The position numbers and the translations under genes were made by a program. From Cereibacter sphaeroides 2.4.1 (GTDB taxonomy: Bacteria > Pseudomonadota > Alphaproteobacteria > Rhodobacterales > Rhodobacteraceae), in the NCBI RefSeq assembly GCF_000012905.2, contig NC_007494.2:870001-902000 (forward strand): DNA of 32,000 nucleotides. Reading direction: 5' to 3'. Below the pieces are notes generated by a model. The model was not told the origin of the DNA. It saw nothing but the letters and a program-made list of their open reading frames with translations, and did not search any database. This document shows, piece after piece, positions 2,052 through 17,865 of this stretch; within the stretch, counting starts at the first letter, position 1; every line of letters begins with the position of its first letter.

Positions 2052-3230
2052 ATGAGCCGTTATTTTTCCCGATCCGAGTACGAGCGCCGCTGGCAGAAGG
2101 CCGAGGCGCTGATGGCCGAGCGCGGCTTCGAGACGGCTGTCGTCTTCTCGCGCGGCGGCGGGACGACCGACAATTGCGGCGACGTGCTCTATCTGGCGAA
2201 CCACTATTCGGTCAGCGGGGGCACCGATTCGACGATCTGGTCGGCGCGGTCCTTCTCGGCGGTGATCCTGCGCCGCGGGCAGGAGCCCGAGCTGCATATC
2301 GACGAGCCCGAGGGACGCGCGGATCTCCTCGCCGTGGACCGGGTGGCCTGCCACAACCATCCGTTCATCGGTGTGGCCGAAGCGCTGGTGGCGCGCGGCG
2401 TCACCGGGCGCGTCGCGCTCTGCGGGACCCAGTTCATCCCGGTGAAATATTACCAGCAGCTCGTGTCGCGGACGCCGGGGATCGAATGGGTCGAGGCCGA
2501 TGACCTGATCCGCAGCCTGCGCCGGATCAAGAGCGCGGAAGAACTCGACTGCTACCGGATCGCGGGCGAGGCGGCGACCGAGGCCACCACGGTTCTGATG
2601 CAGGGCCTCCTGTCGGGGTTGTCCGAGCGCGAGGCGGCCGGCGAGGCCGCCCGCGTGACCGTGGCGCGCGGCGGGCGGGTGCAGGCGATCGGCACCAACC
2701 ACGGCGACACGATGCAGTATGACTACCGCAACCCGCTCACGGGCTCGAGCGCCGACACGCCGGCGGTGGGCGACATGGTGCGCGGCACGGTCCATGCGGC
2801 CTTCTTCCAGGGCTATTATCTCGATCCCGGCCGCACCGCGGTGCGCGGCACCCCCACTGCCGATCAGCGGCGGTTGATCGAGGCCACCAACGACATCGTC
2901 CAGCGGCTGATCGGCATGATGCGCCCCGGCGCGCGTCTCCTTGACGTGGCGGCCGAGGGGGACCGGATGACACAGGCCTTCGGCGGCGAGATCTCTCCGC
3001 TGATGAAGAACTTCCCCTTCTACGGCCACGGGATCGGCCTCTCGTTCGAGCAGCCGCGGATCTCGACCGCCATGTCGCTGCCGGGCGATGTGGTCGAGGA
3101 GAACATGGTCTTCGGCGTCGAGGCCTTCCTCGCCCTCGAGGGCGTGGGGTCGGCCTTCTTCGAGGACATCGTGATCGTGACGGCAGGCACCCCCGAACTC
3201 CTCACCCGCACCCCCCATTATTTCTGGTGA
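2052..3230 (+). CDS. M24 family metallopeptidase (creatinase/Xaa-Pro dipeptidase-like)
   Basis: In-frame ATG at 2052 (MSRYFSRSEYERRWQKAEALMAERGFE...). The 88 codons upstream in the track ORF look non-coding. The layout is a creatinase-like N-domain followed by a pita-bread catalytic half with YYLDPGRT, HGIGLSFEQP and VFGVEAF (metal-ligand context of M24). Confidence 0.8.
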   Translation: MSRYFSRSEYERRWQKAEALMAERGFETAVVFSRGGGTTDNCGDVLYLANHYSVSGGTDSTIWSARSFSAVILRRGQEPELHIDEPEGRADLLAVDRVACHNHPFIGVAEALVARGVTGRVALCGTQFIPVKYYQQLVSRTPGIEWVEADDLIRSLRRIKSAEELDCYRIAGEAATEATTVLMQGLLSGLSEREAAGEAARVTVARGGRVQAIGTNHGDTMQYDYRNPLTGSSADTPAVGDMVRGTVHAAFFQGYYLDPGRTAVRGTPTADQRRLIEATNDIVQRLIGMMRPGARLLDVAAEGDRMTQAFGGEISPLMKNFPFYGHGIGLSFEQPRISTAMSLPGDVVEENMVFGVEAFLALEGVGSAFFEDIVIVTAGTPELLTRTPHYFW

Positions 3231-3358
3231 CCCATGCGGCCTTGGGCGTAAGCCTCACGGTGCGGAAAGGCTGATGGCCCGCGACGGGCGATGTGAGCAG
3301 GATGGGTGCTGCGGACCCGAGCGCGCCCTGCAACTGTTCGGAAAGTCATCTGCGTTGA

Positions 3359-3426
3359 TGGTGGGTGGTGAGGGGCTCGAACCCCCGACATCCTCGGTGT
3401 AAAGAAGGGCGGCACCAGCCAAGCCA
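3359..3426 (-). pseudogene. 5'-truncated tRNA-Val(UAC)-like remnant, a possible att-site relic
   Basis: The reverse complement reads TGGC TTGGCTGGT GCCG C CCTTC TTTACAC CGAGG ATGTC GGGGG TTCGAGC CCCTC ACCACCC A CCA. This gives a D-arm, an anticodon arm with U33 and TAC anticodon (one C-C mismatch), a 5-nt variable loop, a canonical T-arm (GGGGG/TTCGAGC/CCCTC), the 3' acceptor strand, discriminator A and CCA. The 5' acceptor strand GGGTGGT needed to pair with ACCACCC is absent (upstream is GCAAATCAA), so it cannot fold as a functional tRNA. Confidence 0.65.
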
Positions 3427-3439
3427 TTGATTTGCCGTC

Positions 3440-3468
3440 AAAGGCGCGTGTTGTAAAAGGCGCGTGTT
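3440..3468 (+). repeat. Tandem direct repeat, 2 x AAAGGCGCGTGTT (16-nt period)
   Basis: Exact 13-mers at 3440-3452 and 3456-3468, 14 nt from the truncated end of the tRNA remnant. Confidence 0.85.
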
Positions 3469-3487
3469 CACGGTCTGGCCAAGATTT

Positions 3488-3516
3488 CCGGGTTCACTCA
3501 GGTTCAGTGAACCCGG
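3488..3516. other. Perfect 11-bp inverted repeat (hairpin) CCGGGTTCACT-N7-AGTGAACCCGG
   Basis: Read directly from the sequence. It lies about 70 nt downstream of the ampR stop on the minus strand. There is no U-tract on either strand, so terminator function is only a possibility. Confidence 0.5.
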
Positions 3517-3586
3517 GCGCGTCTCGTAAATCGCGGCCCTCCATGTTCCGCGTCCTCGGGCTGCGGCCAGCTCGCAGCGGTCGCTG

Positions 3587-4468
3587 TCATTCAGGGGCAC
3601 GCGGTTGACGAAGCACGTCGCGCATCCAGTCCAGCAAGGCCCGTGATGCTGATGTCATGCGTCGCTCCTTGGGCACGGTCAGCCAGTAGCTGCCCAGGGT
3701 CACGGTGGTGGCAAAGGGGCGTGTCAACCGACCCGCCCGAACATGGCGTTCGAACATCGGCGCAGGCAGCAAGGCAATCCCGAACCTCTCGGAGGCGAGG
3801 TCCGCCAGCCCGATCGAACTGTCCAGGATGGGCCCCGTCAGAGAAGGACAGCTTTCACCTGTCTGCGCGAACCAGGCCGGCCATTCATCCGCCCGATAGC
3901 TGCGCAGAAGCGTGTGCCGGTGAAGGTCTGACGGAACCCGCAGGCCCAGATCTGGAGCGCAGAATGGCGTCATGGGGGCATCCATGATGTGATGCGCCTC
4001 GAGCCCCGGCCACTGGCCGTCGCCGAAGCGGATCGCCGCGTCCAGCCCCTCCCGCGCGATCTCCACCCGGTTGTTGTGTGTGGACAGGCGCAACGTGATG
4101 CCGGGATGCGCGCGGCCGAATGCCTGCTGCCGGGGGATGAGCCAGCCCGCGGCAAAGGTCGTCACCACGCCGATGTTGAGCACTTCGCCCGCCTGCCCCG
4201 CCGCCACCCGGTCCAGCATGCGGGCGATGTCGTCCAGCCCGCGCTCCATCACCGGGAACAGCGCCTGACCCGCATCCGTCAGCATCAGGCCACCCGGCGT
4301 TCGCTGGAACAGGATCACGCCCAGCATATCCTCCAGCCGCGCGATCTGGTGGCTGACGGCGGCCTGGGTGACGCGCAGTTCGACGGCTGCGCGGGTGAAG
4401 CTGCCCTGACGAGCGGCCACCTCGAAGGTGCGCAGGGCGTTCAGCGGGATGTCGGGACGATCTGGCAT
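3587..4468 (-). CDS. ampR: LysR-family transcriptional regulator, AmpR-like
   Basis: 293-aa ORF with an N-terminal wHTH (LNALRTFEVAARQGSFTRAAVELRVTQAAVSHQIARLE) and a LysR substrate-binding domain. It is divergently transcribed from a class C beta-lactamase gene across a 92-bp spacer, the classical ampR-ampC layout. Confidence 0.8.
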   Translation of the reverse strand: MPDRPDIPLNALRTFEVAARQGSFTRAAVELRVTQAAVSHQIARLEDMLGVILFQRTPGGLMLTDAGQALFPVMERGLDDIARMLDRVAAGQAGEVLNIGVVTTFAAGWLIPRQQAFGRAHPGITLRLSTHNNRVEIAREGLDAAIRFGDGQWPGLEAHHIMDAPMTPFCAPDLGLRVPSDLHRHTLLRSYRADEWPAWFAQTGESCPSLTGPILDSSIGLADLASERFGIALLPAPMFERHVRAGRLTRPFATTVTLGSYWLTVPKERRMTSASRALLDWMRDVLRQPRAPE

Positions 4469-5740: not shown

Positions 5741-5810
5741 GCATCCGCTTCACGGCCCCCCGGAATTCCGGGCGGCAAAGGTCTGCTGGCAGCCCTTTCT
5801 CAGACCTTCA
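5741..5810 (+). repeat. Cassette-boundary repeat, copy C (hairpin plus conserved core)
   Basis: Hairpin GCCCCCCGG-AATT-CCGGGCGGC (5755-5776, 8 of 9 bp) followed by AAAGG...CAGCCCTTT...GACCTTCA. It shares the blocks GCGGC(G)AAAGG, CAGCCCTTT and GACCTTCA with copy A (8461-8501), in the same order and orientation. Confidence 0.6.
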
Positions 5811-5975
5811 AGCTCGCTGCAGCATGGTATGTGGTCCCGACGTACAGGGCGGGGAGCGGACGGTCGCTGCGGTCTGCAAGAGCGACGGCTAAGCGAAGCC
5901 AAGCAGACGCTGCGAAGTCGTTGTGTTGGCGCATACCTCAACAGAGCTCAAGCTGCAGTCGCCTTCGCTAATGTT

Positions 5976-6416
5976 CTACAACGCTTCATCTTCGTCCTCT
6001 TCGTCGCCTTCAAGGTCCTCCTCATAGTCCACCTTAAGCTGTTCAATCAACTCCACGGTGATCCACTGATAGCCCATCCGCGAAACGTGCCGATAGTGCC
6101 TTTCTTTGAATGAAGCGAGGGCCGACTTGAATTGCACCATGACAAGAACGGCGTCGCTGACCTGCGGCAGGTCATCGTCGTCTAGAGCCTCAAGATATTT
6201 TGCGTCTGGCTGGCCTTCGAGCACGACCAACAAGTTTTCAAGAACCCGGTTCACGATCTTGACTTTGCCCGCACTCATAGATGCGTCGGGCTTTTTCTTT
6301 GAAAGCTCTTTCACTTCGTCGAGCAAGGACGAAAACACGTCATGACTCGCTTCATACTCAGCGACCTTTGCATCTGTTGTTATATTGGGGAAATAGTAGT
6401 GGTCTTCAAATGCCAT
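5976..6416 (-). CDS. Small protein, paralogue B of cassette 1, with a poly-acidic C-terminal tail
   Basis: 146-aa ORF. Its ATG overlaps the stop of the upstream paralogue (TAATG at 6414-6418). It shares the core LSKKKPDASMSAGKVKIVNRVLE and SDAVLVMVQF with paralogue A. The C-terminus is DYEEDLEGDEEDEDEAL. I recognise no known family. Confidence 0.75.
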   Translation of the reverse strand: MAFEDHYYFPNITTDAKVAEYEASHDVFSSLLDEVKELSKKKPDASMSAGKVKIVNRVLENLLVVLEGQPDAKYLEALDDDDLPQVSDAVLVMVQFKSALASFKERHYRHVSRMGYQWITVELIEQLKVDYEEDLEGDEEDEDEAL

Positions 6417-6811
6417 TATTTTCTTCCAATCTTTGTCGGCGGGCCAGATCGAACTTCGCTCGCCCTTCCATCCACAACATAATACCAGCCGTAACTCCCC
6501 TTGACCGACGCGCTGATCACGTTGTCAGAGCGGAATCGCTCGGCTTCTTCCATATACTGCGCAACAACAATCGTAACATCGCTGGTCGAAGGGGCGTCGT
6601 CTGGATCAAAACTATCGAAGTCGTCGAAAGGCTTGTATTTTTCTCCAAGCACCTCGTTGCCCATCTCTAACACTCTGTTTATGAGCTTGAGCTTGAACGA
6701 GTTTACTGCGTCATTTGGGTTTTTCTTTGCAAGGGCTCCTACTTCGGAATAAAGTCCCTGAAGTTGGCCGACTAGTTTTTCGAGCCGTTCTACATCCTCT
6801 TTGCTGTCCAT
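6416..6811 (-). CDS. Small protein, paralogue A of cassette 1
   Basis: The ORF-track start is 6829. The ATG at 6811 is preferred because GGAGAG lies 3 nt upstream and overlaps the stop (TAG 6820-6822) of the nuclease gene. The core LAKKNPNDAVNSFKLKLINRVLE and SDVTIVVAQY align with paralogue B. Confidence 0.75.
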   Translation of the reverse strand: MDSKEDVERLEKLVGQLQGLYSEVGALAKKNPNDAVNSFKLKLINRVLEMGNEVLGEKYKPFDDFDSFDPDDAPSTSDVTIVVAQYMEEAERFRSDNVISASVKGSYGWYYVVDGRASEVRSGPPTKIGRK

Positions 6812-6819
6812 GATCTCTC

Positions 6820-8256
6820 CTATGGGCAAGCGCGTTGAAACTCGCGGTATTTCATGTTCAGAATGTCGAGCGGTGCGCGCTGTTTACTGTCGAAGACCTC
6901 GACCATCCGCTCCAGGTCAGCATCGGTGAGGGTAATCACGGCCTTCCGCTGCCCACCCCATAGATTGACTGTGCGCTGAAACTCCGCACGCTTGAGTGGT
7001 TTCCTTGTCACGAAGACCCCGAACTTGCCAAGCTCGTCTGTTAGGTAGCGGTTGATCTGGTCGATATGCGTTCGCTCAATTGCCGCGACGTTCTTCATCT
7101 CAAAGGTGATCTGTCGCGACCCGTAGTCGTCCATCAATTCTTGAAGAAGTGGCGTCGAGCGGGTGTTGTAGAAGATCAGGTCGCGGATGGACACCCCGTC
7201 GTCCGTTCGCGCCTGCTCCTGTGCAAAGTCAAGGCTTGGATAGAATAGTGACGGCAGCAATCGCCCGACCAACTTCTCATACTTCACGTCTGCGCCGTTT
7301 GTTTTCCCTGTCGGCAACTTCTTTATCTCGGCAAATACTCGCTTTGCCGAAGTGATGGGGATTTGAGAGAACAGCGGATCGTGCGCGCAATCATCTGCCG
7401 TGCGTTCTTTCAACTGGATATACTGATCAATGACGCCATAGTTTTGGCGATTATAGTTGAGAACCTTAACCCGCGTCAGTTCCTCGGGCTTGTGCGAAAT
7501 CTCATCTTGCGGGCAGTGCTTTTCAAAATACTCGTCGTAGCTGATCCACGGGGCAAACCGCAGCCACCGCTTTGGCACAAAGATAATCGGCGAGCCATTT
7601 TCAGGGTTCACGGGCAACGGTACGCCCACTTCCCGTTTAAACATACCTAAGCGAGCATCATAGACATGCTCAACGGTGCAATCCTGGGTCGGAACGCTGA
7701 GTTTTTGGCATTGCTCAATCGTGAAGTCGATCAGAAAAGATTTCAGGAAGTTGCAGCCAATATCAGAAATGCGGTCCTTTGATATTCCTTCGATGAAGAG
7801 CTGAATCTCCTCGAAGTGCCTGAAACCGCTCTGTTGATAGCGCGGAATCACTTTGAACAGGTCAATTATCTCGCGGGCCTTATCTGCTCCAATCCGCTTT
7901 CCCTTTCGGGTGAGGGACGTGCCCAAGCCGACTTCGTCGCACTCGGAGGCGATGATCAATGTTTCGATTGCCTGCGCTTCTTTGCCTTGCGCGGCGAGAA
8001 CCCCAAGGTGATTGAAGGCGTTGATTAGGCCTATGTGCAGCCCATGATCCTGCTGAGAGGGCGATCGCCATAGCATAAAGGGGTCTAGGTAAAGGGGAAT
8101 GTCCTCATCCAGAAACGGAATCGCGAAGTCGAGATCGACCTGTGCGGCGTGAATCCCATGATAGTCTGTAAGACGAGGTCGAATAAGCAAAGGTACCGCC
8201 GCATGCTGGGGGAGGTTGCTTCGTCGATACCAAATACTGCGGGTCGTTGGCAACAA
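6820..8256 (-). CDS. Uncharacterised 478-aa protein with a C-terminal PD-(D/E)xK (RecB/Shedu-like) nuclease motif set
   Basis: Long ORF in the AT-richer region. The listed start is a TTG, so the true start is uncertain. The C-terminal 110 aa carry SIRDLIF (D), ITFEMKN (ExK) and IDQINRYL (QxxxY) in the order typical of RecB/Cas4/DUF4263-type nucleases. I do not recognise the N-terminal ~350 aa (IPLYLDPFMLW, GLGTSLTRKGKRIG). Confidence 0.6.
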   Translation of the reverse strand: MLPTTRSIWYRRSNLPQHAAVPLLIRPRLTDYHGIHAAQVDLDFAIPFLDEDIPLYLDPFMLWRSPSQQDHGLHIGLINAFNHLGVLAAQGKEAQAIETLIIASECDEVGLGTSLTRKGKRIGADKAREIIDLFKVIPRYQQSGFRHFEEIQLFIEGISKDRISDIGCNFLKSFLIDFTIEQCQKLSVPTQDCTVEHVYDARLGMFKREVGVPLPVNPENGSPIIFVPKRWLRFAPWISYDEYFEKHCPQDEISHKPEELTRVKVLNYNRQNYGVIDQYIQLKERTADDCAHDPLFSQIPITSAKRVFAEIKKLPTGKTNGADVKYEKLVGRLLPSLFYPSLDFAQEQARTDDGVSIRDLIFYNTRSTPLLQELMDDYGSRQITFEMKNVAAIERTHIDQINRYLTDELGKFGVFVTRKPLKRAEFQRTVNLWGGQRKAVITLTDADLERMVEVFDSKQRAPLDILNMKYREFQRACP

Positions 8257-8429
8257 AAGGTTGTCGATGCGTGACGTTCACTCGGTCGCTCTTCAGGGGT
8301 ATTTTACGTTCTCACGCCCGCTTTTTGACTCGGACCAGTCATTCATAGCAGCAGGCATGAAGGTTCGCTGAGGGCCGCAATTGGCCGACCTCGCAGATCC
8401 GCACGCTCATGGCGTTGAGGCCGTGTGGT

Positions 8430-8501
8430 CGCTTCCTGGGCCTCGCCGCCATCCGAGAGTGGTGCGGCGAAAGGCCGCGGACAGCCCTTTGCCGACCTTC
8501 A
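8430..8501 (+). repeat. Cassette-boundary repeat, copy A
   Basis: 8443-8487 TCGCCGCCATCCGAGAGTGGTGCGGCGAAAGGCCGCGGACAGCCC matches 14740-14784 at 38 of 45 ungapped positions. It continues ...TTTGCCGACCTTCA, matching copy C. It lies in a GC-rich non-coding spacer between divergent operons. Confidence 0.7.
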
Positions 8502-8815
8502 TGCGAGGCGCCGCGAAAGGCATGGCGCAGGCACGAGGGGCGGCTGCAGCCCTCGCATCCGCGAAGATCTTCGATTGCGGCCATCCGTCATGCGCCTGGA
8601 GAGCGACACAATCGGCAGAAGGATCACAATGAGTTTTGAGCCACCAACGGACGCTTCTATGAACGAAGGCCGCCGCTCGTGTAAGATACTGGCAACGCAG
8701 CCAGCGCATGAAATGCCAGCTTCTCGTAGGGTGAGAGATTGTCACGCAATTTTGGCAGCGCTTGATCCATAGGTTCCTTGGGCGAAGCTTCGACCATGTT
8801 GGAGGGGAAGATAGA

Positions 8816-9778
8816 TTGGACAGTTTGCAACGTGGGGCCGCGGGAAGAGACCTGGTGTCCTTTCAGGTCAGATCGCTTCTTCAAAGTAGTTGGCAGAATA
8901 TCGATCCTGAAAACGATAACGGTATCGACGGTATAATTTCCTTACGAGAAGGAAAAGCGTTCCTCGGAAGGTTATTGTTCGTTCAGGTGAAAAGCGGGCC
9001 ATCCTTCTTGTTGGACTACAAGCGGAAACGCGTCTCCGGATATATTGGGGTAAAAATTGGCAAAGATTATATAGCGACTCATCGACCACGCTGGGAAGCG
9101 CTGCCTGGCCCTGTAATTCTTGTCTATGTCGCTGAACCTGACAAGAAAACTTCATCTATTTTTTGGCAGAACCTGAAATCAGATGCATCCTATTCCTCAA
9201 CAAATAAGAATGTGGTTCTTATCCCGCGGCATCAGACATTCGGCAGCGAGGCCAAAGGAGCGCTGCGGCGATTAACAGGCTCTAAAGCTGATGATGCGCC
9301 ACTTAAGAATATCGACATGCGGAAGATTGAGCGACTGTCGCAAATTTCGGTCCATGACAGGAAATCCGCTCGACAATTCTACAGGGAATGGTCGCAATCG
9401 AACCTCCGGCACCATCCTGAATTGGGGGACATCGAAGTCACAAATGCGGGTTGGAGACATCTCACAAGGCGCAGTAGAAATCCCGAAAACATACAAAACT
9501 CATTCTTCCTGCTTGAGGCCGCACGCCAGATGATTATTCAGGGAGCTGACTGGAGACAGTTGGGCAGCGCTAAAACGCGTGAACGATCGCAGACAACCGA
9601 TGTTCTCGATGCCTTGTCTCTGCGAGCCAGCGTAACTTTCAAATCGCGAGCTCCCGCCACTGTGCAGGTAATTATTCGCAGAACGCGTTCCATCTGCAAA
9701 TTGACCGGGTCAGGAAGGTCTCGTCTATATTTCTACAGCGTCCATGAGCTTCGCCGGGGAAATTCTATATCCTACTGA
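8816..9778 (+). CDS. DUF4365-like (PD-(D/E)xK fold) protein with an uncharacterised C-terminal half
   Basis: The track ORF starts at TTG 8762. The in-frame TTG at 8816 has GGAGGGG 8 nt upstream and leaves the usual ~33 residues before the DUF4365 signature. That signature is DNGIDGIISL...LLFVQVKSG (D-x-GID ... VQVK). Start choice is uncertain. Confidence 0.6.
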   Translation: MDSLQRGAAGRDLVSFQVRSLLQSSWQNIDPENDNGIDGIISLREGKAFLGRLLFVQVKSGPSFLLDYKRKRVSGYIGVKIGKDYIATHRPRWEALPGPVILVYVAEPDKKTSSIFWQNLKSDASYSSTNKNVVLIPRHQTFGSEAKGALRRLTGSKADDAPLKNIDMRKIERLSQISVHDRKSARQFYREWSQSNLRHHPELGDIEVTNAGWRHLTRRSRNPENIQNSFFLLEAARQMIIQGADWRQLGSAKTRERSQTTDVLDALSLRASVTFKSRAPATVQVIIRRTRSICKLTGSGRSRLYFYSVHELRRGNSISY

Positions 9779-9887
9779 GTGCGGTGGTGGACGCAACGCC
9801 CAAGCACAACTGAGGCAACCCGAAGGGCCTCACCCCAACTTGCACGTATGCCGGCTTTGGGTTGCCGAAGACGTTGGTCCACCGACT

Positions 9888-10193
9888 TGACTGACTGCAC
9901 GAAACACTGAAAGTTTGCAATCATGGATTTCTGTCATGAGCCCCGCGCGAAGCGTCAGACCTCGTTCTGCATGGCAAGTAAGTGTTTGGCTGCACTCAAT
10001 TGACGCAAAGCCCTCAACAATCACTGAGAAATGGCTGTTCGGTTCCTTCGCTCTGGCGCGTTCAAACGGCAGCTATCGTGAAGCCGAGTGTGGCAACCGA
10101 TAACCCTCGACAGGCAGCTCAGGGCCGAGTCTGCATGCTGCGACCGAGCGCCCCAGAGGGCGGGAAGCCGACTGAGGGCGGTGCAGTCAGTCA
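9888..10193. repeat. 306-bp non-coding segment bounded by a perfect 13-nt inverted repeat (TGACTGACTGCAC / GTGCAGTCAGTCA)
   Basis: The left arm is 9888-9900 and the right arm is 10181-10193. It lies in the convergent gap between the DUF4365 gene and the RES gene. Internal ORFs (62-64 aa) show no coding character. Confidence 0.45.
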
Positions 10194-10248
10194 GTCTCCT
10201 TGCCGCGGCCGAGCCACGCCGCAGAAGCAAAATCGATGGGTTCTGACC

Positions 10249-11682
10249 CTAGAAACCTGGGTCACCGACGCGAGCATGATACTCGACAGGGATCTCGGCA
10301 ACATCGAAGTGAATCCCTGTCACCTCCGTTCTGATCAACGTCCCGGTGAAGCTTAGAGCGGGCTCGATTGGAACGACCGGATCAACAACCCAAACCTCAA
10401 GTCCGCCGATGAAGGTATCGTCAGTCTCTTGTCCGGCTTCAGCCACAGGTACAGGCTCACGATAGGAGACTGCTTGCACGGGAGGCTCCCCCTCATCGGG
10501 GTCTCCACTCCAGACGAACGCCTGAACGATGTCGCGTGGCACTTCCTCGTCAGCGCCGGCGATTTTGGCGGCATGAGGAAACAAGACCAAATTTGAGTGA
10601 TCGCCGCTCATTTGAGCCGAGCCGAAAATGATGCCGTCGACCCGATTCTCATCCCTAGTCCAGAGGTACTCCGCTACCACCTGGGTTGGAAGATATTCGA
10701 GTGCTTCGCGGCCAGGAATGACGGCGCGCTTGATCTCATTGTGGAAGCCCCGGAGGTAGCTCCGGTAGGCCTGCGCCCGCAGATAGTCAGGGTGAAAATA
10801 GCTCAGGCGGTTTCCAATCGAGCTGAGCTGCGTGAGGTCAAGAAGTCGAAGCGGCCGGGCCACTTCGAAGCGGCCGACGATCGACGAGCCTCCAACCGGA
10901 ACCCGTGTTTCAGCAACACAGGTCGCAACGTCAAAACTCCCGTAGAAAACTGGTATGCCGGTCACATTCATTCTGCCGGCGGTGCAATGCTCTGGCGGTG
11001 GCGGACCAAGCTGCCTGATAGGAGCGGCAAAGATCGCGCGCCGACTGGCATCATCGTTCGCGACCCGAGCCCGATAGACGAAACGGTTCTCATCTTGCGG
11101 TGTGATCGTGCGGATTGCTGCGCCGTAGTCCGTATTTTCGCCCCGTAGGATCGGCCCAAGAATCTCATCAAGACGCTCTTCTGCAACATCGCTGAAGAAG
11201 CGCCGACCGTGTTTCAGAGACTCGCAGAACGACTGCCAGAGGTCCCGATACCGGCGATCGTCGGGAAGGCGAATGACGTATTTGTCCTCGGTCGTATCGT
11301 AGCAGTCGTATCCACCATCATGGATGTCGAACTGATGTTGGGAACCGAGGAGGTCGAGCACGTCCTCCGCGATCTTGTCGTCGGAGGCGATCAGCATTTC
11401 ACTCAGGAGCGTGATCGCGCTATCGCCGTTGGCCTGCCAGCTCGTACGATCGTCATCCCCGATATAGGGCGTAGGCTCGGCTTCGCCGATCAGCTCCCGC
11501 CACACTTCGTCGATTCTCTGGCCTAGCCAGCGAATTGAAACGGTAGAACTATGATCCTGGTTGCAGTAGTCGCACTCGCGGACGCCGCCTTCAGCTTCGA
11601 TTTCGTCTGAGAGAACCTCGTCGCCGATGCACTCATCGCAGACGAAAGGCCCTACTTCGTCTTCCTCGTCGTCGTGACTCAT
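10249..11682 (-). CDS. RES-domain protein with a Cys-rich N-terminal module (HEPN/RES-NTD1-like)
   Basis: Start taken at ATG 11682 (MSHDDEEDEVGPFVCDEC...), which overlaps the helicase stop (ATGA). The 47 codons upstream in the track ORF lie inside the helicase gene. The N-terminus has CDEC...CDYC. The RES signature is YRAR...GRMNVTGIPVFYGSFDVATCVAETR (R, E) and VDGIIFGSAQMSGDHSNLVLFP (S). Confidence 0.8.
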   Translation of the reverse strand: MSHDDEEDEVGPFVCDECIGDEVLSDEIEAEGGVRECDYCNQDHSSTVSIRWLGQRIDEVWRELIGEAEPTPYIGDDDRTSWQANGDSAITLLSEMLIASDDKIAEDVLDLLGSQHQFDIHDGGYDCYDTTEDKYVIRLPDDRRYRDLWQSFCESLKHGRRFFSDVAEERLDEILGPILRGENTDYGAAIRTITPQDENRFVYRARVANDDASRRAIFAAPIRQLGPPPPEHCTAGRMNVTGIPVFYGSFDVATCVAETRVPVGGSSIVGRFEVARPLRLLDLTQLSSIGNRLSYFHPDYLRAQAYRSYLRGFHNEIKRAVIPGREALEYLPTQVVAEYLWTRDENRVDGIIFGSAQMSGDHSNLVLFPHAAKIAGADEEVPRDIVQAFVWSGDPDEGEPPVQAVSYREPVPVAEAGQETDDTFIGGLEVWVVDPVVPIEPALSFTGTLIRTEVTGIHFDVAEIPVEYHARVGDPGF

Positions 11683-12797
11683 CCGGGTACCCATTTGGTA
11701 GCAGCGACGCTGCAGATCTTTCCGTCGTGGACGAAGGCCACGCTGTACCGAGCGCGTGTGACGGCTACGTACATTTTCGTCAAGGATTTCTCGACATGTC
11801 TGATGTCGCCCGACGCGAGCCATTTGCGAGCCGGCCCGTGCGGGTAGATCAGGACCCGCTCAAAAGTCAGGCCCTTTGACTCCCCAAAATTCATAGCTTC
11901 GTCGAGATCACAATTGGTCGCAGCGGAATACCGGAGCACCTGTGGGGCGAACCGCTTCATGTATTCACCGACGTCTGCGCTGGAGACGAGAAACACTCCG
12001 TCGTGTCCCGTCACCTTGTCGTTTCGCGAAACGGTCTTCGGCTCATTCGGGAAAAAGCCGTCGCCCAGATCCGCAATGGTTTGGTTGCAGCGGTGTGTGT
12101 GGGTTTCGTACTCGATCTCGACGAGCCCCTGCTTCTTCCACAGCTCGAACTTCTTGATGATGGCCGGGCCAGAAAACACTTTGTTTTTCGAAGCGTTGTT
12201 CGTGGCAAAGGTGGCCTGCCGGTGGTCACCGACAAAGGTGACCGGGACGCCCGCTTTTAGTATCAACTCCAAGAGGTCGAGATCGTACCCGGCCATGTCC
12301 TGGATTTCGTCGATGATGATGTGGCGGAAGCGCTGCTTCAGTCGGCGCATGATAGCGCCACCCGATCGTCGGTCACACTCACAAACAAACTTCGCGATCT
12401 TGTCCGAATAAATCCGGGAGCCATCAAAAAAGTAGTGACCGCTGGTCCGCGCTTCGGGAATGTAGGGGACCGACTTCCCTTCAACCCAGTGGATGCCATC
12501 AACCCGACTCGCATGCATGGCTGAACGATAGGGACGGGCAAGCTCCCGCAGCAGAAACGAGTACCAAGAGATGACCTCCACATGGGAGGGAATGGTGCGT
12601 GTGCGTTCGTATGCCTTAAGCTGAATTTCGCGGACATTGTTGCGAGTATAGGTGATTAGTGCCGTTGCTCCCTGCCCTTGCTCGCACGCCAGCGCCTGGT
12701 CGACGACGCGCGTGGTCTTTCCGCCCCCGGCGGCGGATATCACGATGCGATTAACGGACAGCACGGGCGATATAGTCCGGAGGCGACCACTCCACAT
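11679..12797 (-). CDS. Minimal SF1 UvrD/PcrA/Rep-like helicase (GajB-like, 372 aa)
   Basis: Motifs present: I AAGGGKTT, II IIIDEIQD, III VGDHRQATF, V ESKGLTFERVLIY and VI YVAVTRARYSV. The ATG at 12797 lies 47 nt inside the OLD gene; an in-frame GTG at 12764 is an alternative start. The protein is short because there are no obvious 1B/2B insertions. Confidence 0.85.
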   Translation of the reverse strand: MWSGRLRTISPVLSVNRIVISAAGGGKTTRVVDQALACEQGQGATALITYTRNNVREIQLKAYERTRTIPSHVEVISWYSFLLRELARPYRSAMHASRVDGIHWVEGKSVPYIPEARTSGHYFFDGSRIYSDKIAKFVCECDRRSGGAIMRRLKQRFRHIIIDEIQDMAGYDLDLLELILKAGVPVTFVGDHRQATFATNNASKNKVFSGPAIIKKFELWKKQGLVEIEYETHTHRCNQTIADLGDGFFPNEPKTVSRNDKVTGHDGVFLVSSADVGEYMKRFAPQVLRYSAATNCDLDEAMNFGESKGLTFERVLIYPHGPARKWLASGDIRHVEKSLTKMYVAVTRARYSVAFVHDGKICSVAATKWVPG

Positions 12798-14349
12798 TTG
12801 TTTCGAAGAATTTAAGGCCGGTCTCAGCCTTGTATTTGATCATGTGCTCGATAGCGGAAGCTTCATCCGCGAAGGCCTTGCCGAGTACAGCGTTGATCGT
12901 CGCCAGGCCGTTCTTCTTCACGAGCTGGGGCTCGAGCGTGTGGGCCGTTTCGTCTTTATCGTATTGGATTTTAACGATGTCGGAGTTCAGGTACTCGGCG
13001 TATTTTTTCTCCAACGCGGCAACATCAGCATCGTTGTCGGTCACGATATCGGCTGTCTTTTTTAGGAGAACTGCGATTTCGAGGAAGCGCTTGAATGCGA
13101 GCGAATTCACGGAAATAACATCAACCCCATCCTCCAGCGGCATCTTGCCGTGCTTCATATGGTAGGCGCGTTGGACGATCAACTCGTCTGACGGCCCCTC
13201 CACGAGGATCGAACGCTTCGCGAGGATGAGCCGCAGCGTGTCGTGCCCCGGCAGCTTCATAAAATAGTTCTGTGTAGTCCTATCCTTCAGGTCGGTCAGG
13301 CGCACACCCTCGCCGCGCAGGAACAGAAGGACCGACTCCACGCCAAGCTTGTTGAGAACGAAGCTGCTGTGCGTCGTGATAAATATTTGCCGCGAGCCGG
13401 CGTTTGCCGCAATGTGGCCTATCAGCTCGTTGAGGCTGGCGTAGGAGAGGTGGTTTTCAGCTTCTTCAATCAGGATGATGTGGGATTTTGCCGATGTCTC
13501 CATCGCGAGCTTGATCTTGACCGAATTCTGCTCGCCTTTCCCGACGAGTGGCAAAGGGATGTCGTCCAGGTGAGGCATGATTCCTGCCTCCCAGTTCGCC
13601 CGAGCGGAGGTGTCGAGTGAAACCGAGATAACCTTGTCGCTGATCTTCCCCTTTTTTGCCGCGAGCGCGTCGTTGATCGCCTTGACCTTCGGCTCTTCAA
13701 GAAAGCGGTCCTTCATGAGCCGATAGGTCAGAGCGAGGTCAACCTTCTCTTTCGAGGTGAGGCTCTCCTTCACGATGTCGATTACGTAGCGGCTGGCTGC
13801 CGCGTTGTTCTTGATCGTACTGGCATCGATCAGGCTCGCGTGAAGTGGAATGACGCGCGAGTTTAGAATGTCGTTCTCGGCGAAATCCCTCCACTTGATC
13901 CAGTAGTACTCCATTGGGATCGTACGAATTTCGGACGGGTCGGAGACGTATTGAGCAAAGTCTTCTGCGTACGCAGGGTTGAGATCAATTAGGAGCGCCA
14001 CGCCGGGAAGGTCAAGGCCAAGGGTGTTGTTGTTGCCTTTGAGCTTCGTTAGAGCGGGATCGTCGGCTAGGTACACCTCGATTAGGATTGATGGCGGTGC
14101 CGGCGCACGACCCGCCTTTAGTGCTTCGATGTACTCAAGAACGAGATCGAGATTGAACAGATGAGGATGGAGTTCAATCTGGAGAGGCCGGCCATTGAGT
14201 TGACCGGTGAGCGCTAGGTGGATCGCTTCGAGGAGGGTGGATTTTCCACACTCGTTGTTTCCGACAATGACGTTCAGTTTGTCATTGAAGGTGACGTTTG
14301 CCTGCTTAAGGCAGCGGTAGTTTCTGATAACCGCGCGTTGGATGAACAA
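12751..14349 (-). CDS. OLD-family ATPase + TOPRIM nuclease (class 2 OLD / GajA-like)
   Basis: Walker A GNNECGKST, Walker B/D-loop HIILIEEAENHL and H-loop FITTHS. C-terminal TOPRIM with ILVEGPSDE and VTDNDAD. The track start 14400 is a TTG directly abutting a candidate -10 box. The in-frame TTG at 14349 has AAGGGAG 8 nt upstream and gives the family-typical N-terminus (M)FIQRAVIRNYRCL. Confidence 0.85.
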   Translation of the reverse strand: MFIQRAVIRNYRCLKQANVTFNDKLNVIVGNNECGKSTLLEAIHLALTGQLNGRPLQIELHPHLFNLDLVLEYIEALKAGRAPAPPSILIEVYLADDPALTKLKGNNNTLGLDLPGVALLIDLNPAYAEDFAQYVSDPSEIRTIPMEYYWIKWRDFAENDILNSRVIPLHASLIDASTIKNNAAASRYVIDIVKESLTSKEKVDLALTYRLMKDRFLEEPKVKAINDALAAKKGKISDKVISVSLDTSARANWEAGIMPHLDDIPLPLVGKGEQNSVKIKLAMETSAKSHIILIEEAENHLSYASLNELIGHIAANAGSRQIFITTHSSFVLNKLGVESVLLFLRGEGVRLTDLKDRTTQNYFMKLPGHDTLRLILAKRSILVEGPSDELIVQRAYHMKHGKMPLEDGVDVISVNSLAFKRFLEIAVLLKKTADIVTDNDADVAALEKKYAEYLNSDIVKIQYDKDETAHTLEPQLVKKNGLATINAVLGKAFADEASAIEHMIKYKAETGLKFFETNVEWSPPDYIARAVR

Positions 14350-14400
14350 ACTCGTGACTCCCTTCGCCGTGTACACTGCTATGAGGCACAGCTTAAGCAA

Positions 14401-14430
14401 AGTCTACAAGGGCGGGTGCGGCTCAATCAA
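14401..14430 (-). promoter_or_regulatory. Candidate sigma70-type promoter of the OLD-UvrD-RES operon
   Basis: The minus strand reads TTGATT (14430-14425), an 18-nt spacer, then TAGACT (14406-14401). Each hexamer matches consensus at 4 of 6 positions. This is pattern match only. Confidence 0.3.
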
Positions 14431-14726
14431 GTCTAGCCGACCAGAAGAAGCTGGATAGTGAATTCTTGGGTCGGTCGACCTTCGACCGGGTCCATCCGTG
14501 GCTGAAGCGGCCAGACTCAATGCCGTGTTTCAAATCGCAGGTAGCTTGACGGAGGCGAAGAGCAGTAAGCCTGACAGCATCTGCGATCGTGTTCAGGTGC
14601 TTTGCTGCGGCACCGCCTGAACGGCGGCTTCGGAAAGTGCTGCCACGCAGCATGAAACGACCCCGACCGGCGGCTATGGGCCGGGTGCGCTATCTTGCCG
14701 CGCTCGGCCACCTAGCAGCGGAAGTC

Positions 14727-14800
14727 CGGTTCCTGCGCATCGCCGCCCTCCGAGCGCAGGGCGGCGAAAGACCGCAGACAGCCCCTAGCTGCCGGTCGTA
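14727..14800 (+). repeat. Cassette-boundary repeat, copy B
   Basis: 14740-14784 TCGCCGCCCTCCGAGCGCAGGGCGGCGAAAGACCGCAGACAGCCC matches copy A at 38 of 45 positions. It contains a perfect 8-bp hairpin GCCGCCCT-N8-AGGGCGGC (14742-14765). It lies about 150 nt downstream of the restriction endonuclease gene end. Confidence 0.7.
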
Positions 14801-14951
14801 CGGGACGCGTCAAGACGCTAGGCGCCTTCGCAGAGTGCGGAAAGCGGTATAAGAGGTTGCGGCATCGCAGCCGCAGGCGGGACGTGCGTTTGTGGCACAA
14901 GGCAGCCAGCCTCGTTGTCTATTTGTTGCGCTTGGGGCGACGACAATCTTG

Positions 14952-15809
14952 TCAGGACAAACGATAGATGCCCAAGTCCGAGCCGGTGATCTCGCGTGCC
15001 GGAACGAGTCGATAGTGTTTCTCCTGCACGATCGAGACGTCATGTTCGTCGAAGTAGAGCTCGAACATGGCGATGACGTCGTCGCCCATGAATTGAGCAG
15101 ATACAGTCCGGGCCACGCAATGCCGGTATCGTTCGGCAGTTCGGCAGAAGATCGTGTCCTGAATTGTCTGAATCACGCCGAGCCGGTCGCTGCCACCCTT
15201 GGCCTGGACGGGGACGATGAACTGAGCGCCCTTGGAATCCAGGCCGACGTAGAGCTCGTCGATTTCGATCTGCCCGTAGTTCGGGATCTTCGTCCGAAGA
15301 TGGTTTTGCAGACTGTAGGCCGTGATACCCAGGAATATGTCGATGAGCCGGTTGTAGCGCACCTTCGCGAGCAACGCTTGCTCGTCGCCGAGCGCATACT
15401 GAGCGATGATCTCGGGGGTCGCGTCGGGGATTTTCCTGACGAGCAGTCCGGGTGTCGGCTCGATGTAGCAGAGCTTGCTGAGGCGGAAACGATAGCGGGC
15501 GTCGCCGGCGCCGAGGATAAGCCAAAAGCGGCCCGTAGGCTGACAATCCAGGATCGCCTTTGGCAGGCTGCGCCTGTAGCGGAACGTGTAGATCACGTCG
15601 CCGAGATTCTTGGGGGCCTTGACGCCCGTCCTGACGGCGGCCTCGTAGATTTCCTCGCGGCCGAACTCGAACTCCTCCATGCCCGGCCGATAGAACCGTT
15701 GGAAGATGTCGACGATGATCGCCTGATAGGCGTTCAATGTCTTCGGCTCGGCGGAAGTGACGGCCGCCTGGGCTTCTGCCGAAACGTTCTCGGGTTCAGG
15801 ATCAGCCAT
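14952..15809 (-). CDS. Putative type II restriction endonuclease (specificity unknown)
   Basis: 285-aa ORF whose ATG overlaps the methyltransferase stop by 8 nt (ATGGCTGA). It has a PD-(D/E)xK-like segment IEIDELYVGLDSKGAQFIVPVQAKG. The call rests mainly on operon context with the m5C methyltransferase and Vsr. Confidence 0.55.
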   Translation of the reverse strand: MADPEPENVSAEAQAAVTSAEPKTLNAYQAIIVDIFQRFYRPGMEEFEFGREEIYEAAVRTGVKAPKNLGDVIYTFRYRRSLPKAILDCQPTGRFWLILGAGDARYRFRLSKLCYIEPTPGLLVRKIPDATPEIIAQYALGDEQALLAKVRYNRLIDIFLGITAYSLQNHLRTKIPNYGQIEIDELYVGLDSKGAQFIVPVQAKGGSDRLGVIQTIQDTIFCRTAERYRHCVARTVSAQFMGDDVIAMFELYFDEHDVSIVQEKHYRLVPAREITGSDLGIYRLS

Positions 15810-17133
15810 TTACCACACGTAATTGGACACGCGCCGCTTCGATCTCGTGCTGCTTGCGCTTCTTTGCGCCGCTCTTTCGGTCGCGCCGCGAGGACGGCGC
15901 TGCCACTCCGAAGTGCTCCGCCGCTTCCGACATCTCCATGTAGAGCAACGAGGGCTCTCCCAAATCGATTGCACGCGCAGGCCGCTCCGGGGCGACGCCC
16001 AGTGCTCGGACTATCTCGGAGGCGACCGCGCGGGCGAGGGGCGGCGGCACGGAGTTGCCGACTTGCCTTCCGCCATGCCACTTAGTGGCGTGGAGCCTGA
16101 ACCAATCGGGGAACCCGTGAAGCCGCGCCATCTCGCGCACGGTGATGCAGCGGTTGTACTCGTAGTGGATCGGCCGAGGACTGGTGAAGGCCCCCCGGGC
16201 ACCGTCAGTGCCTGCCCTCAGAGTGTTGCAAAGGCCGCCCGGTGCCAGCTTGTAGAAGCGGCTGATCGGCTCAACCGCCCCTTGCGGGGTCTCTTGGAAG
16301 CGCCGGCGAGAAATTTCCGAATGGGCCGTGCGCGCGCTGGATGTCATCCATGTCGGCGTCCAGTTCCGGGGATAGCCGTAATGCCAGGCATCGTTGTTCA
16401 GGCAGCGCAATTCGGCCGCGTAGGTAGACGGCTCGCCCATGGCAGAGGTCCGAACAGCGTCGCTCTCCACGAGCGAGGCGAACCGATCTGCATCGGGAAG
16501 GTCCTCGATCGCGTCCCGAACGGTCGGGCCGCCAGGAAGGTGAGCGAGCGGTTTTCGCGCGTCGGCTGCATTCGTCTGGGGCGGGGGGATCTCGGGAAGC
16601 GTCTCGCCTCGCTTCGCTCCGATGAGGAAAAGGCGTTGCCGATGCTGCGGCGTTCCGTAGTCCGCCGCATCGAGAACCTTCCAAGGCAAGCGAACATCGT
16701 AGCCCGCCATGCCGAATGCGGCGACGAGCTCGCTGAGGAAGGTCCGATGGGAGCCAACCGTCAGCCCCTTGACGTTCTCGAAGACGAAGGTCCGTGCATC
16801 GAGCTCCCGCACCAGGCGTACGAACTCGAGCACCAGGCTGTTGCGTGGATCCTCCAGGGCGCGGTGCCCGATCAAGGAGAAGCCTTGGCAGGGCGGCCCA
16901 CCGAAGACACAGTCGATGGGGCGGTTCCCGATGCCGGCGGATTCGCGGATCTCCTCGGCCGTGAGCCCCACGACCGACCGCGGGATTACGGCGGTGTCGG
17001 GGAAGTTGAACTTGTGCACGGCGCAGTGCACGGGATCGATCTCGACGGCAGCGGCAACGTCGAAGCCCGCCTGCTCGAAGCCGAGCGACAGGCCTCCTGC
17101 GCCGGCGAACAGGTCGATTCCAATAGGTCTCAA
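15802..17133 (-). CDS. DNA cytosine-5 methyltransferase
   Basis: Motif I IDLFAGAGGLSLG, motif IV GGPPCQGFS, motif VI FVFENVKGL and motif X GNSVPP. The TTG start at 17133 has GAGGAAG 7 nt upstream. Confidence 0.92.
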   Translation of the reverse strand: MRPIGIDLFAGAGGLSLGFEQAGFDVAAAVEIDPVHCAVHKFNFPDTAVIPRSVVGLTAEEIRESAGIGNRPIDCVFGGPPCQGFSLIGHRALEDPRNSLVLEFVRLVRELDARTFVFENVKGLTVGSHRTFLSELVAAFGMAGYDVRLPWKVLDAADYGTPQHRQRLFLIGAKRGETLPEIPPPQTNAADARKPLAHLPGGPTVRDAIEDLPDADRFASLVESDAVRTSAMGEPSTYAAELRCLNNDAWHYGYPRNWTPTWMTSSARTAHSEISRRRFQETPQGAVEPISRFYKLAPGGLCNTLRAGTDGARGAFTSPRPIHYEYNRCITVREMARLHGFPDWFRLHATKWHGGRQVGNSVPPPLARAVASEIVRALGVAPERPARAIDLGEPSLLYMEMSEAAEHFGVAAPSSRRDRKSGAKKRKQHEIEAARVQLRVVNG

Positions 17134-17184
17134 AGGTTTGCTTCCTCGGCTGGCGCGGATCGGACTGCAGATTAGCCTACCGCA

Positions 17185-17625
17185 TCATGCTTGTCGATCG
17201 GTTTTCGTCGGCCCGAGGAATGCGCACAACCGCGATCCCACGCGCTCGATGTCTTTCAGTTCGCACTGCCAGACGACCAGCGTCTGCCAGCCGAGCGCCT
17301 CGAGCTCGGAGAGCTTCCTGCGATCCCGTGCGACGTTCGCCTCGATTTTCGGGCCCCAGTAGTCCAGTCGAGAGGTCGGCAACCGCCCCTTTGCGCAGTC
17401 GTGTCCGTGCCAGAAGCACCCGTTCACGAAGATGGCCTTGTGCCGGGCTGGGAAGACTATGTCCGGTTGTCCGGGCAGAGACCTCGCGTGGAGTCGATAG
17501 CGATAGCCTTTTGCGTGCAGCAACGAGCGCACGATGAGCTCGGGGCCCGTGTTCTTGGTCCCCACCGCCCGCATGATCTGCCGGCGTTGCTCCGGAGATC
17601 TCGTGTCTGCCATTCGGCTCACCAT
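17185..17625 (-). CDS. vsr: Very-short-patch repair endonuclease
   Basis: 146-aa ORF with typical Vsr strings RSPEQRRQIMRAVGTKNTGPE, PGQPDIVFPARHKAIFVNGCFWHGH and YWGPKIEANVARD. It lies directly upstream of the m5C methyltransferase on the same strand. Confidence 0.92.
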   Translation of the reverse strand: MVSRMADTRSPEQRRQIMRAVGTKNTGPELIVRSLLHAKGYRYRLHARSLPGQPDIVFPARHKAIFVNGCFWHGHDCAKGRLPTSRLDYWGPKIEANVARDRRKLSELEALGWQTLVVWQCELKDIERVGSRLCAFLGPTKTDRQA

Positions 17626-17865
17626 TGCTCGCTGTGTTGAGCGCTATGTACGCCCGGCGGAAGATCTGCTCAACGATGAGCGGGTGAAGGTGACGGTTGC
17701 TACCGGCCTGCAACCTGTGCTTCAAGCCACGACCCTGGTGCGTTATCCGTCCGAGGCCCGCCGAAATCTCTGTACATATTTCGCGACGCAATGACCGGTC
17801 GCAGCGGTGCGGCCGTGGAAGGGGCACGGCTGGCGCGCGCATCAGGTCGCCTGCCAGCGTGGCCA

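Follow-up and report, generated by a model that had tools for sequence, protein, structure and literature searches.

Gabija defence genes of Cereibacter sphaeroides 2.4.1 and a RES-domain gene at the GajB stop codon: a probable case of co-transfer of two autonomous modules

A stretch of 32,000 nucleotides (nt) of Cereibacter sphaeroides 2.4.1 (contig NC_007494.2, positions 870,001 to 902,000; hereafter, the window) carries three co-directional genes encoding an OLD-family ATPase with a TOPRIM domain, a UvrD-like helicase, and a protein with a RES domain. In a preliminary description, they were considered a candidate three-gene, Gabija-like defence system with RES as the effector. According to the present analysis, the locus is probably a standard Gabija pair behind which an autonomous, antitoxin-less, abortive infection (Abi)-like RES gene was captured, and with which it is co-transcribed and co-transferred. 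This two-module explanation is preferred because each half is complete, has intact catalytic motifs, and is also maintained alone, and because the nearest relatives of the window genes are unlinked. The linkage would be due to co-transfer and co-expression and not to an obligatory sensor–effector relationship. As for the three-gene system, its anatomy, tight overlaps, and recurrence in seven lineages were upheld; co-occurrence outside one shallow clade was not, and the link has been broken repeatedly. The three-gene reading is thus weakly supported, and the evidence on the triad indicates adjacency rather than a new system.

The open reading frame (ORF) listing gives three minus-strand ORFs, 12751-14400, 11679-12797, and 10249-11682, with a start/stop overlap at both junctions, as expected from the tight packing described before. 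The features of the locus are as follows.

14358..14364, minus strand: Shine-Dalgarno-like AAGGGAG, 8 nt 5' of the gajA TTG start, read from the sequence
12751..14349, minus strand: gajA, OLD-family ABC ATPase and TOPRIM nuclease, 532 amino acids (aa) from TTG 14349; longest ORF to 14400
12751..12764, minus strand: 14-nt overlap of the gajA stop and the gajB start, also present in L170, L175, and L189
11679..12764, minus strand: gajB, short superfamily 1 (SF1)/UvrD-like helicase core without the 2B domain, 361 aa from GTG 12764
11679..11682, minus strand: ATGA, gajB stop overlapping the RES start, junction compared across eight loci
10249..11682, minus strand: Zn-ribbon/HEPN-RES-NTD1/RES protein, 477 aa (Pfam RES and HEPN_RES_NTD1)
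11563..11640, minus strand: CxxC...CxxC zinc ribbon, residues 15-40 of the RES protein, with near-invariant cysteines in 58 homologues
11182..11589, minus strand: HEPN/RES-NTD1 domain, residues 32-167 (Pfam PF18870), predicted sensor or regulatory domain
10543..11043, minus strand: RES catalytic domain of the ADP-ribosyltransferase (ART) superfamily, residues 214-380 (Pfam PF08808, fold matches)
10250..14409, minus strand: mobile three-gene cassette, blastn against L001, L170, L172, and L189, 83-88% DNA identity

The OLD ATPase/TOPRIM identity of the first protein is well founded: its ORF matched Pfam AAA_15 (76.7 bits), AAA_21, and OLD-like_TOPRIM (40.7 bits, residues 393-457), as well as the PADLOC GajA model PDLC00102 (780 bits, profile positions 2-530 of 532). 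Its translation contains the Walker A motif GNNECGKST, the TOPRIM glutamate motif EGPSDE, and DNDAD. TTG 14349 is most likely the start codon, because the Shine-Dalgarno-like box lies upstream and homologues are 532 aa long; position 14430, previously given as the end of the locus, lies outside gajA with this start. The second ORF matched Pfam UvrD-helicase and AAA_19 and the PADLOC GajB model PDLC00148 (485 bits, profile positions 2-367 of 369). The AlphaFold2 (AF2) model of GajB had a mean confidence score (pLDDT) of 91.5, and its best Foldseek match in the PDB was 8tk1_F from the Gabija AB complex (E 1.9e-14), followed by UvrD, PcrA, and Rep. In comparison with Rep, motifs I-Ia, II-III, and V-VI alone align and the 2B domain is absent, which agrees with the earlier statement that the helicase lacks accessory insertions. 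Its length was then given as 372 aa, the product of the alternative ATG 12797; most likely, it starts at GTG 12764 and has 361 aa, because most homologues, including a cluster member with a RefSeq accession, are of this length. With this start, the overlap with gajA is 14 nt, and the 47 nt reported before correspond to the longest possible ORF. Short GajB proteins form a family with 1436 matches, mostly of 358-361 aa. In P0378 (three NCBI accessions with C. sphaeroides annotation), GajB begins at M94 of the window protein, has 279 aa, and is 100% identical to the window protein over this part; the cause may be the choice of start codon or, in those strains, a disruption upstream.

The locus has the elements by which Gabija is defined, namely, an OLD ABC ATPase and TOPRIM in one polypeptide (GajA), a UvrD-like SF1 helicase (GajB), and gajA followed by gajB in one operon, the pair being conserved as a unit. 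Together with the full-length matches to both PADLOC models, this confirms the suggested assignment of the OLD and UvrD genes to Gabija. Anti-phage activity, a GajA:GajB supramolecular complex, and a nucleotide-regulated nuclease may be expected by analogy with the Bacillus cereus and Pseudomonas aeruginosa systems. Conservation of the pair was assessed in 92 metagenomic and viral short-GajB loci with 29-91% identity. GajA was adjacent in 64 of the 65 loci with enough upstream sequence, and none of the 61 other Gabija loci with at least 1.5 kb downstream contained RES. The genes after GajB in those loci were heterogeneous and often convergent (unknown proteins, SbcD-like, Mrr, HNH, TraG). Therefore, the two-gene pair is the conserved unit. 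A conserved alternative third gene behind the short GajB was also considered and rejected, as the downstream genes were varied and the unknown ones mutually unrelated.

The RES protein (477 aa) matched Pfam RES (PF08808) with 73.4 bits and HEPN_RES_NTD1 (PF18870) with 37.6 bits at a gathering score of 27.4. Residues R237, E258, and S355, and also N239 and Y247, are invariant across 58 homologues, among which C15, C18, C37, and C40 are near-invariant. The AF2 model (pLDDT 86.8) had RES toxins as its top three PDB fold matches, 8gug_A and then ParT (6d0i, 6d0h); a comparison with the PDB by sequence gave nothing meaningful. Thus, the protein has a RES domain with the conserved Arg, Glu, and Ser of RES toxins, and the cysteine-rich N-terminal module and RES signature noted in it earlier are well supported. 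It also has the architecture described by Anantharaman et al., in which NTD1 is N-terminal to RES, often with an extra Zn ribbon, in a single gene; the Zn-ribbon/NTD1/RES arrangement is one of several Abi-like "N-terminal domain + toxin" architectures (2013, PMC3710099). RES toxins carry out chemistry on nicotinamide adenine dinucleotide (NAD+) (PMC9503650), and according to its family, the window protein would be an NAD+ phosphorylase, NADase, or ADP-ribosyltransferase. The catalytic motifs are intact in all three proteins of the locus.

No Xre/DUF2384-like antitoxin ORF was found in the window, in agreement with the preliminary description. Two small ORFs downstream of RES (10021-10230 and 9830-10024) had no Pfam match and lie beyond the end of the triad similarity at about 10250-10270; they were rejected as antitoxin candidates on these grounds. 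An Xre-RES type II toxin–antitoxin (TA) module was likewise rejected for the window RES, with no Xre/DUF2384 antitoxin gene adjacent to it. In addition, Rfam gave no match to an RNA element (RNA antitoxin, riboswitch) at E ≤ 1 within 9500-15000.

Outside the clade that carries the triad, Gabija was absent from the RES-family loci surveyed. A scan of species-representative genomes yielded 80 RES-homologue loci (30-49% identity, up to 10 kb of flank each); individual look-ups at 36-58% identity and two plasmid loci brought the total outside the shallow clade to 86, of which 76 had at least 3 kb of upstream sequence. GajA or GajB was found in none of the 86. Synteny of the third gene with OLD/UvrD homologues, proposed earlier as a check on the three-gene system, was therefore absent on both sides, in the Gabija loci and in the RES loci outside the clade, and RES did not co-occur with OLD/UvrD across diverged homologues. 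No neighbouring ORF family occurred in more than 4 loci, and the same maximum applied to the Pfam families in 73 upstream co-oriented ORFs, among which no HTH/Xre family recurred; with at most 4 loci per neighbour family, a conserved partner gene for RES was rejected.

The window protein belongs to a large family of NTD1-RES proteins of roughly 470 aa. According to tblastn, 759 plasmid records, of which Klebsiella accounts for 462, contain homologues (about 30% identical), which are annotated there as "RES family NAD+ phosphorylase". In the two plasmid loci inspected, L173 and L174 (the latter is K. pneumoniae pBSI138_P3, 12079-13581), RES is a single gene among other defence-type genes, and the family stands among defence genes in all six loci with named neighbours. 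The NTD1-RES family looks like a candidate single-gene defence, because it is a single gene among defence-type genes in these two plasmid loci and because PADLOC-DB v2 gave no match to the window RES protein. The triad DNA had no match in plasmids; RES had none in viral contigs and only two weak ones in phage records.

Two types of neighbourhood were observed in addition. In L190 (5114-7425), a RES homologue with 58% identity is preceded at 20 nt by a 113-aa HTH_3-like ORF, and the opposite strand carries an adjacent NADAR (ADP-ribose processing) gene; the family gave no other hint of an Xre-type antitoxin-like or ADP-ribose (ADPr)-reversal partner. In four Dehalococcoidia loci (L028, L056, L048, L026), the RES homologue is preceded, in the same orientation, by a gene for a large SNF2 helicase. 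A Pfam scan of two of these helicases found a NOV_C domain in L028, where the SNF2 ORF ends 9 nt before RES, and a PLD domain in L056; one other locus has a UvrD-type helicase upstream. These helicase neighbourhoods may reflect chance within defence islands or a weak helicase–RES theme.

The triad was limited to one shallow clade, in which the RES proteins share at least 74% identity with the window protein; this is one shallow alphaproteobacterial lineage. There, seven lineages carry it as one cassette, in no fewer than six genomic contexts: the window, L001/L002 (beside cobalamin genes), L085, L189, L170-172 (integrase/RusA element), L175 (beside radical-SAM genes), and the P0009 contig (beside primase and DUF499/DUF1156 genes). 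The DNA similarity spans from ~14409-14443 to ~10250-10270 and ends at the RES stop or no more than about 20 nt from it; since the shared DNA is bounded by the cassette ends, the three genes move as one cassette. In the GajA and GajB trees, RES-bearing loci were in a single clade nested within two-gene Gabija, with the RES-less L176 inside the clade. This nesting suggests that RES was captured once, precisely at the stop codon of GajB. The comparison of eight loci identified the ATGA at 11679-11682, already reported for the window and confirmed in its sequence, as the junction created at that capture.

The link formed in this way was lost at least three times within the shallow clade. The closest Gabija relative of the window among the loci compared by dS (synonymous divergence) is L176 (GajA dS 0.34), in which GajA is 94% and GajB 89% identical and the DNA is 90.5% identical over exactly 14349-11679; this locus is without RES and runs into an unrelated gene after GajB. 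The closest RES relative is in L188 (93% aa identity, dS 0.49), behind a 615-aa protein of unknown function. The RES of L166 (82%) is likewise behind a 615-aa-type gene, and that of L167-169 (78%) is behind AbiJ_NTD4 and DUF7946/7947 genes, both without Gabija. Similarity of the Gabija-less L166 and L188 to the window spans just 11692/11707 to 10249, which marks RES as an autonomous module recombining as a whole. A relic of the GajB 3' end, 20-33 nt long (about 30 nt in L188), is still present upstream of the RES ATG in L166, L167, and L188 and reads IAATERVP, IATTEWVP, or LQKWVS versus ATKWVP in GajB; therefore, these Gabija-less loci descend from the triad. Tight coupling of RES is thus also seen with unrelated upstream genes, where the overlap is a relic of the GajB junction: L166 and L188 have the ATGA overlap because they inherited it. 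None of the results speaks for a licensing of RES by the OLD/helicase module. In the RES tree, the Gabija-less P0005 and P0007 are also nested inside the triad clade. Both parts are intact when alone, Gabija in L176 and RES in L166, L188, and L167.

Several observations concern individual loci of the clade. In L176, the gene behind GajB (2694-4370) encodes a 558-aa protein of unknown function and starts 23 nt after the GajB stop; in L175 (9431-9595), the first 56 codons of this gene survive as a relic directly after RES with 64% identity. The 558-aa gene may be the ancestral downstream neighbour in front of which RES was inserted. A second recurrent cassette consists of the 615/626-aa protein followed by RES with an ATGA overlap (L166 6124-9434 and L188 1130-4407). 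The 615-aa family gave 677 matches of roughly 600 aa, and a few members showed weak CHAT (PF12770) similarity. As a regular companion of RES it was rejected, with no match in other fetched RES loci and none in plasmids. In L001 (~7900-8000) and also in L002, gajB has a 2-nt deletion in motif VI (TRARYSV to TRAR*), shortening GajB by about 22 aa and leaving a 60-nt gap before RES; this may be a decaying Gabija beside an intact RES or an assembly error common to two samples. In P0009, the most basal triad member (genes 8001-10027), a NUDIX/NDPSase_N gene lies 12 nt after RES, and such a Nudix hydrolase could process ADP-ribose-derived RES products; the triad adjoins DUF499/HEPN_Swt1, DUF1156, and SNF2-NOV_C genes there, which are BREX-related-type defence genes.

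Selection on RES was estimated from the ratio of non-synonymous to synonymous divergence (dN/dS), which lay within 0.07-0.13 for every pair, with 0.073 for L188/L166, a pair without Gabija; these values are pairwise, and several dS are near saturation. RES is under strong purifying selection without Gabija. Between L188 and L166, dS was 0.26 for the 615-aa gene and 1.17 for the adjacent RES; therefore, RES alleles were swapped and recombine independently of their neighbour.

Besides the near-saturated dS values, some points weigh against the two-module explanation. The triad was kept together through a dS of about 0.5-1.1 and in at least six contexts, and the GajB/RES junction overlaps in six of its seven lineages; some joint selection is therefore plausible. 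RES also stands repeatedly directly behind other defence-type genes (Gabija, the weak-CHAT 615-aa protein, AbiJ_NTD4 with DUF7946/7947, and a few SNF2 helicases). As for the Gabija half, the solved B. cereus GajA and GajB chains had no sequence match from the short-GajB subtype at E ≤ 1e-3.

The first of these points bears on a cooperative two-layer defence, in which Gabija and RES would have separate triggers and effectors and would be co-selected in one operon for wider phage cover or for RES as a backup. In the backup variant, RES would act when phages inhibit Gabija, e.g., by Gad1/Gad2-type proteins, giving synergy without obligate dependence. Seven lineages and at least six contexts in which the cassette is maintained and mobilised as a unit speak for such cooperation, as does the precedent of the Pycsar plus type IV Thoeris operon, whose halves work alone yet synergise (PMC13069673); the autonomy of each half elsewhere fits it as well as it fits the two-module explanation. 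However, the link was lost no fewer than three times in a shallow clade, and both the nearest Gabija and the nearest RES relatives of the window are unlinked from the partner. Moreover, unrelated defence genes are usually packed tightly in such islands; for example, the L001 RES overlaps a HEPN-like/T5orf172 gene pair. Cooperation of this kind is considered unlikely, though worth keeping in view. The same modest likelihood is given to a stronger form, in which the cassette is a co-adapted two-layer unit with synergistic protection that neither half gives alone. It is also conceivable, at a similarly low level of expectation, that RES reads a Gabija-generated signal (nucleotide depletion, DNA ends) or fires when anti-Gabija proteins disable GajAB. 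More broadly, Zn-ribbon/NTD1/RES genes might be portable terminal effectors behind different upstream defence genes, a generalisation viewed with doubt; the upstream genes would tentatively include Gabija, the CHAT-like 615-aa protein, and AbiJ_NTD4/DUF7946.

An integrated three-component system, as originally proposed, appears quite improbable. In this case, the OLD/helicase module would sense or process invading DNA and license RES, with death by NAD+ depletion, and RES would do without an antitoxin because Gabija controls it. The overlaps at both junctions, the lack of an antitoxin ORF, and the conservation of the triad within its own clade are consistent with this scheme. Against it, antitoxin-less RES-NTD1 proteins without Gabija are the rule (86/86 loci, with homologues in the 759 plasmid records), so that Gabija cannot be a general controller of RES. 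Furthermore, RES proteins at 78-93% identity are intact and under purifying selection behind unrelated genes, a Gabija that is 90% DNA-identical (L176) is without RES, and GajA keeps its own intact TOPRIM effector motifs.

Finally, RES may not serve phage defence at this locus; it may be a selfish toxin for addiction, a stress-response toxin, or a passenger in decay, carried along with the Gabija cassette. In their canonical form, RES proteins are the toxin components of type II TA modules (PMC9503650), and the family is abundant on plasmids. An addiction module requires an antitoxin partner, which was not found, while strong purifying selection and intact catalytic residues oppose decay, and the family stands among defence genes in the six loci with named neighbours. 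This explanation was regarded as very improbable.

According to the preferred explanation of a Gabija pair with an autonomous RES gene, the locus would function as follows. GajA and GajB of the complete two-gene Gabija/class-2 OLD system (short-GajB subtype) would form a complex, by analogy with characterised systems. As in those of Bacillus cereus and Pseudomonas, the GajA TOPRIM nuclease would be held in check by bound nucleotides and set free once nucleotides are depleted by phage replication or DNA ends are exposed by it and sensed by GajB. The RES protein, whose domains, invariant R/E/S residues, and purifying selection are observed, is presumed to act as a single-gene Abi-like toxin; the N-terminal Zn-ribbon and HEPN/RES-NTD1 would hold the RES domain inactive until an infection cue. 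Once activated, RES would destroy NAD+ (by phosphorolysis to ADPr-1''-phosphate) or ADP-ribosylate a target, and growth would stop. In evolutionary terms, RES would have been inserted once at the GajB stop, after which the cassette spread as a unit, with both halves also persisting alone.

All defence genes of the window lie within a low-GC island at ~5800-17650, with 51-59% GC versus 66-73% in the flanks. Window proteins matched ABA81361.1, ABA81362.2, and ABA81365.1 exactly, which identifies the source as Cereibacter (Rhodobacter) sphaeroides 2.4.1. No tRNA genes were found in the whole window, and no integrases were among the window proteins scanned with Pfam. Flanking repeats were only short and at chance level, with no mark of a transposable cassette. 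A promoter/terminator scan, which is poorly suited to an alphaproteobacterium, gave a match count near the shuffle expectation. The minus strand at 5976-8256 contains a complete PADLOC candidate system, PDC-M36, with one A gene (6820-8256, 742 bits) and two tandem B-type genes (6416-6829 and 5976-6416), which match PDLC04599 and PDLC04600; Pfam and NCBIfam gave no match to any of the three proteins. On the plus strand, a gene at 8762-9778, convergent with RES, encodes a DUF4365 protein (338 aa, 100 bits), for which PADLOC gave a weak match to a REase-type model associated with Argonaute; this is probably a further nuclease-like defence gene that stands alone. Directly upstream of gajA and in the same orientation, a type II restriction-modification module (14952-17625, minus strand) comprises REase_II (PADLOC, 464 bits) together with a C5 cytosine methyltransferase and the very-short-patch repair endonuclease Vsr.

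The Gabija subtype, with its PADLOC models, and the RES architecture, in Pfam and in the 2013 survey, are already known. The Gabija–RES triad has no system name in PADLOC-DB v2, which also gave no match to the RES protein, and the literature search revealed neither a paper linking Gabija with a RES gene nor an experimental test of the Zn-ribbon/NTD1/RES family; the earlier remark that no Gabija variant with a coupled RES had been described thus agrees with the catalogue and the literature. If the preferred explanation is true, the locus is ordinary, a catalogued Gabija subtype beside a described RES architecture in a typical defence island. At the same time, it is a clean, datable case of defence genes joined into one operon and later separated, with relic junction sequences recording the order of these events. 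It also points to a large antitoxin-less Zn-ribbon/NTD1/RES family without a PADLOC model. Cereibacter sphaeroides 2.4.1 is a genetically tractable model, so autonomy, synergy, and dependence are separable there.

Among known systems, Xre-RES type II TA modules (MbcTA, ParST, PrsTA-like) share with the window protein the RES catalytic domain and the conserved R/E/S signature; its fold is closest to the RES toxins VPA0770 and ParT, and NAD+ chemistry is expected. In contrast to them, the window protein is ~3x longer, has a Zn-ribbon/NTD1 of its own at the N-terminus and a beta-rich region at the C-terminus, and is too distant for a sequence match to any solved RES toxin; Xre/DUF2384 is absent at the window and does not recur upstream of the family.

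The operon with Pycsar plus type IV Thoeris (NAR 2026, PMC13069673) is similar in that two autonomous systems are in one operon and are transferred together; synergy was reported there. Type II Gabija (Liu-DS1), in which GajB is accompanied by the MazF-like GajC replacing GajA (PMC13069673), is a precedent for non-canonical gene sets around Gabija components. The window was rejected as a case of it, because a full-length, intact GajA is present and the extra third gene is RES and not MazF-like.

With Gabija itself, the window shares an operon of overlapping genes in which an OLD ABC-ATPase and TOPRIM protein precedes an SF1 UvrD-like helicase; its proteins match the PADLOC GajA/GajB sub-models full length, and the best fold match of the helicase is the Gabija AB complex. 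Its GajB differs in being a ~360-aa minimal core without 2B, as compared with 493-494 residues in the solved B. cereus GajB chain, and in the lineage of the window a third gene, RES, is joined to the GajB stop codon. With the proteins composed of the Zn-ribbon, HEPN/RES-NTD1, and RES (Anantharaman et al. 2013, Biol Direct 8:15; PF18870 and PF08808), the third protein shares an identical domain order; like it, they are single-gene products with no conserved partner, and their genes lie in defence islands and on plasmids. The difference is that in the window and its six sister lineages, this gene is part of a Gabija operon.

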